From: an uncultured delta proteobacterium
GTDB lineage: Bacteria > Desulfobacterota > Desulfobacteria > Desulfobacterales > SG8-13
Assembly: GCA_963848135.1 (NCBI GenBank)
Contig: CAWKCK010000017.1
Coordinates: 1 to 64,000, forward strand
DNA length: 64,000 nt
Direction of reading: 5' to 3'
Part shown: positions 54,701-57,700 of the stretch, one piece after another
Layout of the letters: each line of letters begins with the position of its first letter
Position numbering within the stretch: position 1 is the stretch's first letter
Program-made: the position numbers

Positions 54701-57700
54701 TTGATTGACACGGCTCCCGGTACGGTTGAGGATGGATCGTTGTTGGCATTGAGGCCGATACCGACATTGACATAGGCCACCCGGTCGGTCTCTGCCTCCA
54801 TTTCGGACAGGATACCCGCGAGTTTGCGGTCGTTGACCAGAATGTCATTGGGCCATTTTAGCGCGGCGGGAATCCCGTAGAGTTGTTGCAGCGCCCTGGC
54901 CATGACAAGGGATACACAGAAGTTCACCTGCAGGCTGAGCATCGGCGCCAGGTTGGGTCTGAGAACGACCGTGAAATAGAGGCCGCCTTTTTCGGAGGTC
55001 CAATGGCGCTGCAGGCGTCCCCGGCCGAGTGTCTGTCGTTCAGCCACAACTACCGTCAGCGCCGGGCATCCCCCCCGCGCCAGCTTACGGGCAATATCCA
55101 TGGTCGAGGAGACTTCCGGATAAAAATGGATCGCCTTTTCACGCCCCGGAAATTCCCACCGATAGGGCACATCCGGCTCCACCAACAAATGGTAGCCCTT
55201 ACCTGATGTGCTGATGTCATATCCGCATTCCTGTAATTTCTGAATGTGCTTCCAGACGGCCGTTCGCGAGAGACCAAGGATGCTGCTGAGCGCCTCTCCC
55301 GAAACGATCGTTGACTCTTCTCTGAGGAGATTGAGGATTTTTCCTTTTGTTCCGTTCATCTATTCGTCAACCTTTAAAATCGCGAAGGTTAACGAAAATA
55401 AGAAAACCTGTCAACCATAAAACGGAAACGAAAAAAGGCTTAAAACTTTGAAACGTTCAGGCAGGCCAATGAATCGCGGTAATCTAAAGAATGGGGGGTC
55501 AATTGATTATTCGAATGATGCGTGGCCGGTACTCATCCTTCTTGCCCATTCGATTGCTGCGCAGCCGGACGAATACAAAAGCCAGAAGGAAAAAAAAGAG
55601 ACCTATCAGCAAGGAAAGGATTGAGGGGTCCAATTGCAATCTCGGACCCATGTTCTGTCCGATAGCAGCCCCAAGTATCATGAGAAGGACCGGAAAGACG
55701 TAGAGCAGAAATGAGACTTTCAACACCGCTGACGACGAAACGCTGAGCACGATCCGGTCGCCCACCTTCGCGCCGGCTTCGTTAAGGGCTTCGACTTCCG
55801 TTTCCTGGCCGTCACTCCCGGTGACGTGGCACGACTTGCGGGACGCTCAACCCCCACAAGCATTGCTGCGGGATGTTTTCACCCAGGCCGTGGCAGCGCC
55901 TATTCTGGTAACAATTCCCTTTTCTGTGGCCATAGGTTATCAGGCAACTTTCTCGGTGGGTTCGGCAGCATGACGGTAGCATATCAAACCGCATTGCAAG
56001 CATCGATCGGCTTCGACTCGGGCTGCTGCTTCATCGAAACCCAATTCTATTTCTTTGTGCTTGCCTTCATCGTGGGGTCCCCGCAACGGCATGAGGCGGC
56101 GCGCAGAGGAATTGACGTCTGCAACATGATCGACGTTTTGAACATACACGTCCGGCGTCACGACATTATCAGGAAGATCCAGAGGGATTCCGTACATGAC
56201 TTCATGGACCGATGCGGCAATACGGCGTCCTGCGCCGATGGCCTTTATGGCCGCGCTGAAATCGGTGAAGGCGTCTCCTTTAGAAAACAGGCCGATTTCG
56301 GTTCGGAAGGCCGGTTCTTTGTAAGGGCTCATGCCCACCCAGCGCAAGGGGCCCTCTGCCTCAGGCATGGCATCTGCGGACGCTTCTTCGTCCGTGGTGG
56401 CTGCAAAGATAACTATTTCAGGCAGACGGCCACTGGCAAGAACGAGGGTCCCGGCGGTCAACGACGCCTTTTCGCCGGTTTTCAGATCGACCGTTTCAAT
56501 TCCTGTCAAACGGCTGCCTTCACCTTGAAGTTGAACGATTCCGGTGTTGAACAGAAAGCGGACTTCCCGCCCGGCGAGTTCCTCGAAGAGAGTATCGTCT
56601 AATCGACATTCTTCCTGTGTTTCTCTCAAAACGACAGTGACCTTGTCCCGGCCAATATCCTTGCTGATTCGTGCCGCATCGAGCGCAAGCCGGCCGCCAC
56701 CGTAGATAACAACGTCTCCTTTTACATCGACGCTGGAATCCTTTTGCAGCGCGTTTTTCACGAAATCGAGCATCAAGTAAACACCGGGTATCGGCTCTTC
56801 AACCTTGTGCAGTCCTCCGCGGGCCAGACGACTGTCCCAACCGCCCAGGGTAACCAGCACGGCTTGGTTACCACTCTGCAGCAAGGATTCGACTGTCACA
56901 TCTTTTCCTAACACCTTTTGAGTCTGCGCTTCGACACCCATCTCGAGAACACCATCGATATCCCAATCGAGAACCTCAGCCGGCAGGCGATCGGCAGCGA
57001 TCGCACTTCTGAGCAATCCACCCAATTGGGCTGTCGCCTCGAACAGGGTGGGTGCATGACCCAGTCTCGCCAGGAAGAAGGCCGCCGACAAGCCTTGGGC
57101 ACCCCCACCGACCACCGCAACGCGGCGACCGGTATCCGGGGCTTTGAAAGGCAGGATACGGTTTCCATTCTTCATTTCATAATCGGCCGCATACCGTTTC
57201 AGAAAGTTAATGGCTACGGATTCGTCGACAAACTGCCGGCGGCATTCATTTTCACACGGTCGCGGACAGATCCTTCCGATCACAGCCGGTAACGGATTGC
57301 GTTCTTTGATCACCTGAACAGCGCGGTGATAATCCCCCAGACTTATCTGACGAATGTATTCACAAATATTGATCCCGGCCGGGCAGGCCCGCTGGCAGGG
57401 CGTTGTGCATTCATCGGCTTTGTATTCCTTCAGAATCCTTCGAGTGACTGAAGACAGATTGATAATGTTTTTCGGGCATACGCTTTCACAGGTGCCGCAA
57501 CCGGTGCACAACTCTTCGTCGACAACCGGAAGCCCATCGGACCCCATGACAATCGCGTTGAAAGGGCAGGCGCGCTGACACGTCCCCATTCCAAGGCACC
57601 CGATGGTACACACCTTCATGCCGCCGCTCAACAACGCAGCGGCCCGGCAGTCGTTCAGACCGTCGTAAAGAAATTTCGTGTCCGCGTCGGACACCCCATA

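Follow-up and report, generated by a model that had tools for sequence, protein, structure and literature searches.

Does a TGA codon at a conserved cysteine position end the gene in which it lies, or is it decoded as selenocysteine (Sec)? The question is raised by an RseC/MucC-family gene in the window, the 64,000-nucleotide stretch of an uncultured Desulfobacterales genome analyzed here. The first-pass annotation had described a 144-codon gene on the minus strand with a TGA at the second motif cysteine and had read it as a selenoprotein gene. The reading frame and the PF04246 match both agree with this description, and comparison of sequences makes it highly probable that the locus is a real Sec-decoded RseC-family gene. 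The selenoprotein reading is supported by the invariant Cys column on which the TGA lies, the Sec machinery of the genome, purifying selection upstream of the codon, SECIS-type hairpins, and recurrence across lineages, which all agree.

Reading frame, family, and predicted fold

55499..55933, minus strand: predicted RseC/MucC-family selenoprotein gene (PF04246), 144 sense codons including Sec29
55847..55849, minus strand: in-frame UGA, codon 29, read as selenocysteine, at the second Cys position of C26-x-x-C29-x5-C35
55829..55858, minus strand: motif C-G-G-U-A-S-R-K-S-C, codons 26 to 35 (the RseC CX2CX5C triad)

The frame opens with an ATG at 55933 and closes with a terminal TGA at 55499 to 55501. 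The TGA at 55847 to 55849 is its sole internal stop codon, further stops and frameshifts being absent, and codon 29 stands in the context A-C-G-G-U-A-S-R-K-S-C, which provides C26, U29, and C35 of the CX2CX5C motif. In a six-frame search of the genome, PF04246 matched at 112.9 bits with "1 TGA," the top of three genome matches and the same values as those given earlier; with the TGA written as C, the score is 123.4 bits (cut-off, 24.4) over profile positions 1 to 130 of 130. The paralogues on contigs C12 and C7 lack an internal stop and carry the motifs A-C-G-G-C and A-C-T-D-C, respectively, the former bearing the Cys that had been attributed to it. As had also been noted, RseC is the sole NCBIfam match (NF008115, 45.4 bits). 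Because this score falls under the equivalog cut-off of 184, the window protein is filed, on its profile scores, as an RseC-family member and not as a SoxR-reducing orthologue.

All three triad columns are invariant in 121 aligned sequences, and the TGA column is Cys in 120 of the 120 other homologues, as it is in a smaller alignment (21/21). The best full-length Cys forms share 67 to 69% identity with the window protein on either side of the TGA codon.

55640..55735, minus strand: predicted transmembrane helix 1, residues 67 to 98 (AlphaFold2 model)
55547..55627, minus strand: predicted transmembrane helix 2, residues 103 to 129 (AlphaFold2 model)

Both helices are present in the AlphaFold2 model, with pLDDT values of 87 to 95 predicted across the helical part. 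The least confident part is the Cys loop, with pLDDT values below 50 at residues 24 to 27 and 35 to 41. Judging from the model and from the E. coli topology, a cytoplasmic β-barrel domain of about 65 residues would bear the flexible C26-x-x-U29-x5-C35 loop and would be followed by two transmembrane helices and a short C-terminal strand packing back on the N-domain. A sequence search of solved structures with RseC returned none at E < 0.5, and Foldseek of the model against the PDB returned none at E ≤ 0.001, giving only weak OB-fold look-alikes such as IF1, S17, and EutN.

Recurrence of the TGA and its decoding

The genome encodes tRNA-Sec (76.5 bits), SelA (622 bits), SelB (374 bits), and SelD (371.7 bits), all above their curated cut-offs, and selD contains a TGA of its own, which we take to be its known Sec site. 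selA was found in all 14 genomes tested, seven with a TGA form of RseC and seven with a Cys form.

A family-level search of 20 genomes gave 10 full-length orthologue rows (four TGA and six Cys) and two fragments. The earlier count of four TGA forms from two genera holds, G000 and G012 belonging to the first genus and G018 and G019 to the second, but the exact figure of 14 aligned orthologues given alongside it could not be reproduced. Altogether, 17 TGA forms were found, eight in genomes and nine in metagenome contigs, all from Desulfobacterales; Sec is at codon 29 (CxxU) in 15 and at codon 26 (UxxC) in two. Among 38 orthologue loci read codon by codon, a nonrandom set for which TGA rows were deliberately fetched, TGA stands at codon 29 in six and at codon 26 in two, and the other 30 read TGY at the two positions alike. 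An even sample of the order (401 genomes) showed "1 TGA" in 6 of the 150 matches listed, and a metagenome scan with a degenerate pattern specific for CxxU yielded nine loci, each of them a full-length RseC gene in which codon 29 is TGA. Outside the order, a phylum-wide sample showed the TGA in none of the 41 other genomes having a match.

These forms make up five lineages, not 17 independent cases: a tree of 47 sequences requires five Cys/Sec changes (bootstrap range, 5 to 6), of which at least four are forced by well-supported branches. The earlier worry that the TGA might be limited to four genomes in two pairs of close kin is therefore lifted, since the 17 sequences, two of them with Sec at the other Cys of CxxC, need five switches. 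In pairs of TGA forms, the codon differences before the TGA stand at 7:2, 5:3, and 9:7 (synonymous to nonsynonymous), and G012 has an in-frame one-codon insertion upstream of the TGA; by these comparisons, purifying selection acts on the 28 N-terminal codons. A contig from a separate study that spans 55773 to 55892 shows 16 differences, none of them within 55847 to 55849; among sequencing runs, no RNA data set was listed as a holder.

55810..55826, minus strand: putative bacterial SECIS core, 6 bp (stem CGUCAC, loop CGGGA, stem GUGACG)

Downstream of the window UGA, this stem starts at 20 nt and the loop at 26 nt. The hairpin recurs in metagenome locus L119 and also in G012, where a single C-to-U change leaves a U-G pair in place. 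The hairpin had been placed about 20 nt behind the codon with 6 to 7 bp; the window and G012 do have a 6-bp stem at 20 nt, but the range was too narrow, the perfect stems of G018 and G019 having 8 to 9 bp. Four hairpin sequences occur at about the same site in different lineages, nearly identical within a lineage and out of register between lineages. Their loops begin with GU or GGU in three, and the window loop, CGGGA, lacks the GU present in those other three.

The published bSECIS model specifies an apical loop of 3 to 9 nt, a stem of at least 4 bp, a G in the first two loop positions, a distance of 16 to 37 nt from the UGA, and a minimum free energy of −7.5 kcal/mol or lower (PMC13188914). 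A scan applying three of these four criteria (loop and stem size, loop G, and spacing), with the energy criterion left outside it, found a perfect-core hairpin in 17 of 17 Sec forms, at spacings of 18 to 28 nt and with core energies of −3.7 to −10.6 kcal/mol. The three criteria are loose, as some hairpin is also found in 14 of 30 Cys forms (three at −3.5 or better, one at −7.5) and none in the other 16. In the window, the perfect core alone reaches −6.6 kcal/mol and the 66-nt segment −15.7 kcal/mol, and we count the hairpin as a bSECIS member; whole-segment folding energies of the first eight TGA forms range from −12.7 to −24.8.

The model-based scan was adopted because whole-segment energy was not significant against dinucleotide shuffles and gave mixed results against synonymous-codon shuffles. 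Indeed, the 73 nt past the window TGA fold no more stably than dinucleotide shuffles (z = +0.54). Against synonymous-codon shuffles, the lineage of G018 and G019 (g4) is more stable, as are its relatives from metagenomes (0.002 to 0.018), and the window lineage is marginal (0.05 to 0.11). Significance is not reached by the lineage of G397 and G339 (f29), two single-contig genomes that look like isolates, or by either UxxC form (0.09 to 0.93). The claim that only TGA forms carry a hairpin is close to correct, in that none of the six Cys forms of the same taxonomic family passes the scan. Two of these six (L017 and L018), however, fold an imperfect hairpin at the site and with it outdo their synonymous shuffles (0.005); Sec forms are thus not alone in having a hairpin there. 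Following the bacterial model, SelB with Sec-tRNA(Sec) would bind the hairpin at 55810 to 55826, and the ribosome would decode UGA-29 as selenocysteine rather than terminate.

Were the TGA a true stop, the product would be a 28-residue peptide, perhaps with a downstream restart (for example, at the GTG at 55765, giving 88 amino acids), or the gene would be a decaying pseudogene. Under translation table 11, the 88-amino-acid open reading frame at 55499 to 55765 is the only one listed at the locus (its exact look-up in a protein collection gave no match, which is uninformative on public-record annotation), and the nonsignificant local fold against dinucleotide shuffles would also suit a stop. 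We nevertheless consider termination very improbable, since the TGA is kept at codon 29 in 15 forms and at codon 26 in two, always in a Cys column, changes before it are mostly synonymous, homology is full-length across the codon in a frame with no other stop or frameshift, and a SECIS-type hairpin follows the TGA in all 17 forms. A restart at codon 57 would, moreover, lose the triad and half of the β-barrel, which are invariant in the family.

Bacteria can misread UGA at a low level, and the codon might thus be read as Cys or Trp through near-cognate suppression, or through a changed genetic code. This we judge to be extremely improbable, given that the RseC gene uses TGA as its own terminator, that the genome has a complete Sec machinery and a TGA-containing selD, and that the position of the hairpin fits the bSECIS model. 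Five translated neighboring genes are free of in-frame TGA, which shows that the genome uses this codon as a stop. Pseudogene, restart, and alternative code were rejected on the conservation of the TGA on Cys columns, the full-length homology, the Sec machinery, and the use of TGA as a stop in the genome.

The probable operon and related systems

55940..58009, minus strand: RnfB/ferredoxin/GltD fusion, 689 amino acids, ending 6 nt before the RseC start
58037..59884, minus strand: NuoF-like FMN/NADH subunit, 615 amino acids (TIGR01959, 505.6 bits, under the cut-off of 558.65)
59903..60256, minus strand: DRTGG-domain protein, 117 amino acids
60281..60775, minus strand: NuoE-like thioredoxin-like [2Fe-2S] ferredoxin, 164 amino acids

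The Sec-decoded RseC gene would probably be transcribed last in a five-gene operon, after the NuoE-like, DRTGG, NuoF-like, and RnfB/ferredoxin/GltD fusion genes. The NuoE-like gene is probably the first, and the next gene upstream (60977 to 61816) lies on the opposite strand. The order NuoF-like, RnfB/GltD, RseC is retained in most related loci. The NuoF-like subunit carries a thioredoxin-like [2Fe-2S] domain at its N terminus and a 2x[4Fe-4S] domain at its C terminus. The fusion protein (176.5 bits against NF005503) begins with a membrane helix and an RnfB-type Fe-S domain (PF04060), continues with a 2x[4Fe-4S] ferredoxin, and ends with a GltD-like NAD(P)H/FAD oxidoreductase.

In the window, the RnfB-type site of the fusion is Cys46 (PGAN-C-GGC), and Sec is found instead in RseC. 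Fusion orthologues have TGA at this first cluster Cys (PGAN-U-GGC) in 6 of 22 related loci, in agreement with the listing of NF005503 as a catalogued selenoprotein family of the "UxxC" type (PMC13188914, Table 1). The parallel with RseC is that a Cys in a CxxC-type cluster motif of a protein related to Rnf gives way to Sec, but the family and fold differ.

The accessible part of Lee et al. (2024; PMC11729352) describes Cys26, Cys29, and Cys35 of E. coli RseC as a conserved CX2CX5C triad of which two residues are required for function, an oxygen-sensitive Fe-S cluster reconstituted on a refolded N-domain fragment, and two-hybrid contacts with RsxB and RsxD. This protein of the SoxR-reducing system, which acts with RsxABCDGE, shares with the window protein the Pfam family, the size class, the two-helix topology, and the triad itself, whose residue numbers are coincidentally identical. 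It differs in that residue 29 of the window protein is Sec and its NF008115 score is 45 bits (cut-off, 184), and its gene belongs to the rpoE-rseABC operon, whereas the window gene lies behind an RnfB/GltD fusion.

In Clostridium ljungdahlii, RseC is encoded directly upstream of rnfC and is required for autotrophy, according to the portion of the report that is available (PMC9124969). It is likewise a PF04246 protein with two predicted membrane helices and a genetic tie to Rnf-type electron transport, and selenoprotein status is not reported in that portion. Unlike this rnf-adjacent gene, the window RseC gene is about 890 kb from the single rnfD of its genome (C17:946278) and is linked instead to a fusion of an RnfB-type domain with a GltD-like enzyme.

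At the domain level, the operon also resembles the electron-bifurcating transhydrogenases Stn/NfnABC (Bfu-type), in which NuoE-like, NuoF-like, and GltD-like NADPH modules are co-encoded (PMC10482914, as far as its accessible text goes). In StnC, as described there, GltD is fused to a NuoG domain; the 689-residue GltD-like protein of the window has no NuoG-type domain and bears instead an N-terminal membrane helix and an RnfB-type domain. The window operon further adds the DRTGG protein and RseC.

A proposed role for the Cys/Sec triad

Natural replacement between Sec and Cys classically marks residues that are engaged in redox or metal chemistry. Since such replacement takes place in the triad, we infer that the triad is the working redox site of RseC. 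By analogy with the E. coli N-domain, it may ligate an oxygen-sensitive Fe-S cluster with selenium as one ligand, a proposal for and against which we hold the chances to be even.

Alternatively, Sec29 could be no metal ligand but the residue that attacks, or resolves, in a selenylsulfide redox couple formed by CxxU. RseC would then act as a membrane-bound thiol/selenol oxidoreductase, whose tasks might include reducing a disulfide of the RnfB-type domain or repairing a cluster there. Among redox selenoproteins, no Sec motifs are more common than CxxU and UxxC (PMC13188914), and Sec occupies either Cys of the pair according to lineage, as in thioredoxin-like families. We take this possibility seriously but lean against it: in E. 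coli, as far as the accessible text of PMC11729352 goes, RseC tolerates single Cys-to-Ser changes and loses its function only with double ones, and an Fe-S cluster is taken up by its N-domain; the CxxC pair is followed, five residues on, by a third invariant Cys; and the adjoining RnfB-type site, which also alternates between Sec and Cys, is a cluster-binding motif according to PF04060. Beyond cluster ligation and the selenylsulfide/selenol pair, the remaining probability goes to some other role.

RseC would most likely dock on the RnfB-type domain of the adjoining fusion protein, as suggested by the conserved gene order and by analogy with the contacts between RseC and RsxB in E. coli. Once docked, it would serve a membrane-anchored NAD(P)H-ferredoxin oxidoreductase of the NuoEF/GltD type, either by passing or gating electrons or by maturing and stabilizing the enzyme. 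A further, rather unlikely proposal is that the RseC triad and the CX2CX4C motif of the RnfB-type domain form adjacent or shared Fe-S centers at a membrane-bound subunit interface, with selenium as a direct ligand. Sec at RseC-26, RseC-29, RnfB-46, or in both proteins would then be lineage-specific tuning of one electron-relay step in an undescribed membrane-anchored NuoEF/GltD (Bfu-type) complex of sulfate reducers.

RseC is apparently an uncatalogued selenoprotein family. The 2026 catalogue, with its 119 families of prokaryotic selenoproteins, does not include it, and no link between RseC/MucC and selenocysteine was found in the literature covered, supplementary lists of selenoproteome surveys lying outside that coverage. 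Gene callers will drop or shorten the TGA-form genes. For decades RseC has been defined by phenotype, namely the reduction of SoxR in E. coli and, in C. ljungdahlii, autotrophy together with rnf expression, and to our knowledge it has no agreed biochemical role. The gene context links the family to an RnfB-type domain in which Sec and Cys likewise alternate, and it reveals a conserved five-gene Desulfobacterales operon with the parts of an electron-bifurcating NAD(P)H/ferredoxin enzyme. If the two motifs did form adjacent or shared Fe-S centers, RseC would be a true electron-transfer subunit, not a regulator, and a natural series of selenium- and sulfur-ligated Fe-S clusters would be at hand.

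A TGA codon within an RseC/MucC-family gene

The gene under study belongs to the RseC/MucC family and contains a single internal TGA in its reading frame:

55499-55933, minus strand: RseC/MucC gene of 144 codons (ATG at 55933; terminator TGA at 55499-55501)
55847-55849, minus strand: in-frame TGA at codon 29, the sole internal TGA of the RseC frame

Translated across the TGA, the gene gives a protein that starts with MATEKGIVTRIGAATAWVKTSRSNA-C-G-G-U-A-S-R-K-S-C and that, with Cys put at the TGA, matches Pfam RseC_MucC (PF04246) over profile positions 1-130 of 130 at 123.4 bits. 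As the first-pass annotation had reported, a six-frame search of the window's genome (G000) with PF04246 places this gene first of three matches (profile 1-130, 112.9 bits, flagged with one TGA), the paralogue on contig C12 has Cys at the site, and RseC is the only NCBIfam match. That model describes the E. coli RseC equivalog; the score, 45.4 bits, falls short of its cut-off of 184. Both the C12 and the C7 paralogue are stop-free, and the C7 copy likewise has Cys. Their settings differ: the C12 copy (L002, G000:C12:119911-123300) follows a P-type (E1-E2) ATPase and adjoins a Ser/Thr kinase, and the C7 copy (L003, G000:C7:111047-114427) has a heavy-metal-resistance (PF13801) protein and a Cache-domain sensor in its vicinity.

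A large protein collection yielded 479 homologues, the best being full-length Cys forms with 67-69% identity over 99% of the query; C26, the TGA position 29 and C35 are invariant Cys columns whether 21 or 121 sequences are aligned. The genome encodes the selenocysteine (Sec) machinery, with tRNA-Sec (76.5 bits), selA, selB and selD each over the curated cut-off, and its selD carries one TGA itself. Since the RseC gene's own terminator is TGA and the translated neighbour genes contain no in-frame TGA, this codon serves as a stop in G000. Additional to the full selB on C4, two adjacent minus-strand selB matches lie outside the window at G000:C15:43659-45516 (profile 13-105 and 106-580; 124.5 and 202.6 bits), which could represent a split or frameshifted SelB-like paralogue.

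The TGA was also found in independent DNA when Logan contigs from four runs were compared over 55400-56050. One contig, identical across 55673-55868, may derive from the source sample. A second contig, which comes from another study, spans 55773-55892 with 16 differences, none of them at 55847-55849; in our reading, those at 55841, 55850 and 55856 leave the residue unchanged and the pair at 55854-55855 replaces Gly27 by Gln. None of the sequencing runs listed is an RNA run. In the codons upstream of the TGA, synonymous and residue-changing differences stand at 7:2 between the window and its relative G012, 5:3 between genomes G018 and G019 and 9:7 between G397 and G339, each a pair of TGA forms; G012 also has an in-frame insertion of one codon in this stretch.

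Recurrence of the TGA and exchange between Sec and Cys

Of the 10 full-length orthologue rows that represent the taxonomic family, 4 carry the TGA, with G000 and G012 in one genus and G018 and G019 in another, which bears out the four forms in two genera of the first-pass annotation. At the level of the order, 401 evenly sampled genomes, 303 with a match, gave a one-TGA flag on at least six match rows, counted among the best 150 with 155 weaker rows beyond these, and newly added G397, G339, G158 and G076. Codon-by-codon inspection of 38 orthologue loci, a non-random set in which TGA rows were deliberately included, placed the TGA at codon 29 (CxxU) in six and at the earlier Cys of the pair, codon 26 (UxxC), in two (G158 and G076); the remaining 30 have TGT or TGC at codons 26, 29 and 35. 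Among the named contigs retrieved by pattern search and tblastn, 1 of 36, that of G012, has the TGA. A degenerate pattern specific to CxxU matched TGA forms only, on loci already known, and in a metagenome collection it retrieved nine contigs, each of which encodes a full-length RseC homologue whose codon 29 is TGA. In a phylum-wide sample of 301 genomes, 42 of them with a match at E <= 1e-22, no TGA was seen except in the window's genome.

A maximum-likelihood tree was computed from 47 sequences, of which 45 are distinct, with 17 Sec and 30 Cys forms. In it the CxxU forms make up three well-supported clades with Cys forms beside each: the window's genus (100/98), G018/G019 with metagenome relatives (97/94) and the G397/G339 family (98/90). 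Of the UxxC forms, G158 has as its sister a Cys form from the same genus (100/98), and G076 stands alone on a long branch. With all rows labelled, five changes between Sec and Cys are required (bootstrap range 5-6), at least four of them forced by starred branches. Because selA is present in all 14 relatives tested (seven with Sec forms, seven with Cys forms), loss of the machinery does not account for the Cys forms.

The hairpin behind the TGA

The published bSECIS consensus comprises a loop of 3-9 nt with a G among its first two positions, a stem of 4-16 bp, a UGA-to-loop distance of 16-37 nt and an MFE of -7.5 kcal/mol or lower (PMC13188914). Our scan for perfect cores applied only the loop, stem, loop-G and spacing constraints and found a hairpin in all 17 Sec forms (core energies -3.7 to -10.6 kcal/mol). 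Among the 30 Cys forms, the same scan left 16 without a hairpin, with three at -3.5 kcal/mol or better and one at -7.5.

Hairpins behind the TGA (stem / loop / stem, distance from UGA)
Window's lineage: CGUCAC / CGGGA / GUGACG, 26 nt
G018/G019 lineage: UGUCACCU / GUC / AGGUGACA, 23 nt
G397/G339 lineage, most members: CGCC / GUY / GGCG, 24 nt
Both UxxC forms: GCAAGA / GGU / UCUUGC, 18 nt

Whole segments fold at -12.7 to -24.8 kcal/mol in the first eight TGA forms and at -13.9 to -26.0 kcal/mol in the nine from metagenomes; the window's 73-nt segment does not exceed its dinucleotide shuffles in stability (z = +0.54). Against synonymous-codon shuffles, the G018/G019 lineage alone among the Sec lineages stands out clearly (0.002-0.018); the window's lineage is borderline (0.05-0.11), and neither the G397/G339 lineage nor the UxxC forms reach significance. 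In the window's genus, the Cys forms L017 (G006) and L018 (G003) have an imperfect hairpin that beats such shuffles (0.005), and the Cys form of G103 (L068) has a hairpin identical in sequence to that of its UxxC sister (L071). A hairpin is therefore not exclusive to Sec forms, and the initial claim that it occurs in TGA forms only is close to correct but not fully so; the hairpins of these three Cys loci may be relics of recent Sec-to-Cys replacement. At the hairpin, UGA would be decoded in a SelB-dependent manner.

The proposed RnfB-type partner and a possible role for selenocysteine

The RseC gene starts 6 nt past the stop of a gene for a 689-aa fusion protein:

55940-58009, minus strand: membrane helix, RnfB-type Fe-S domain, 2x[4Fe-4S] ferredoxin and GltD-like NAD(P)H/FAD oxidoreductase, in that order

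Its RnfB-type domain (PF04060) carries the motif PGAN-C46-GGC-GLPG-C. Further upstream, the same strand encodes a NuoF-like protein to which [2Fe-2S] and 2x[4Fe-4S] domains are added, then a DRTGG protein and, last, a NuoE-like [2Fe-2S] protein; the gene beyond it points the other way. Most related Desulfobacterales loci keep the order NuoF-like, RnfB/GltD, RseC, whether their RseC is a Sec or a Cys form. Bfu-type transhydrogenases such as StnABC have a similar trio of NuoE-like, NuoF-like and GltD-like subunits, but StnC has a NuoG domain, which the 689-aa protein lacks (PMC10482914). The one canonical rnfD of the genome is about 890 kb away and adjoins none of the three RseC genes. Against NCBIfam NF045663 ('diclust_near_Sec', a short name that refers to Sec), the fusion scores 131.7 bits, below the cut-off of 530. 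Downstream of RseC, birA (biotin ligase/repressor, HTH), bioY and an ABC ATPase form a biotin uptake cluster (52774-55359, minus strand), and birA stands behind RseC in many related loci.

In 6 of 22 loci (L069, L070, L081, L083, L085 and L089; for example L069:3795-5861 in G397), the RnfB-type domain has a TGA of its own at Cys46, the first Cys of the PGAN-C-GGC motif, where the window has TGC. Both proteins carry Sec in G397 and G339, the RnfB-type domain alone in four loci, and RseC alone in the window. In G339 the RnfB/GltD orthologue (L070:3645-5800) changes frame near residue 530, giving two tblastn pieces with the first codons masked, which may reflect an assembly error or a broken gene.

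The catalogued selenoprotein families include the RnfB-type 'UxxC' form (NF005503; PMC13188914, Table 1), and the Sec residue, its decoding system and the RseC protein family are likewise known. The same table, from a 2026 review covering 119 prokaryotic selenoprotein families and subfamilies, has no entry for RseC, MucC or PF04246. RseC and MucC are not mentioned in the main texts of the selenoproteome papers of 2006 (Genome Biology), 2007 (Olavius symbiont) and 2016 (ISME J), a 2022 review, a 2022 preprint on eight new families and the 2026 review, and a full-text literature search, with supplementary tables and RefSeq flags outside its scope, returned no paper linking RseC to selenocysteine. 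Sec in RseC, its two alternative positions and the interplay of Sec and Cys between RseC and its RnfB-type partner thus appear not to have been described.

An AlphaFold2 model of RseC (mean pLDDT 78.6), built from the 121-sequence alignment with C for U and a spurious final C from the terminal TGA in its first row, comprises four N-terminal strands, long helices at 67-98 and 103-129 and a C-terminal strand; the Cys loop is its least confident part (pLDDT < 50 at 24-27 and 35-41). Foldseek returned weak OB-fold look-alikes only, and a sequence search of solved structures found no relative. E. coli RseC has cytoplasmic N and C termini and a conserved CX2CX5C triad (Cys26, 29 and 35), two of whose three cysteines are required for function; once refolded, its N-domain acquires an Fe-S cluster that is sensitive to oxygen, and the protein contacts RsxB and RsxD in two-hybrid assays (Lee et al. 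2024, PMC11729352). In C. ljungdahlii, rseC lies upstream of rnfC and is required for autotrophy (Klask et al. 2022, PMC9124969). We give about an even chance to the reading that the predicted cytoplasmic Cys/Sec/Cys site ligates an Fe-S cluster; more tentatively, it might cycle as a selenylsulfide. RseC would dock on the RnfB-type domain of the neighboring fusion, where it may relay or gate electrons or maintain that domain's cluster.
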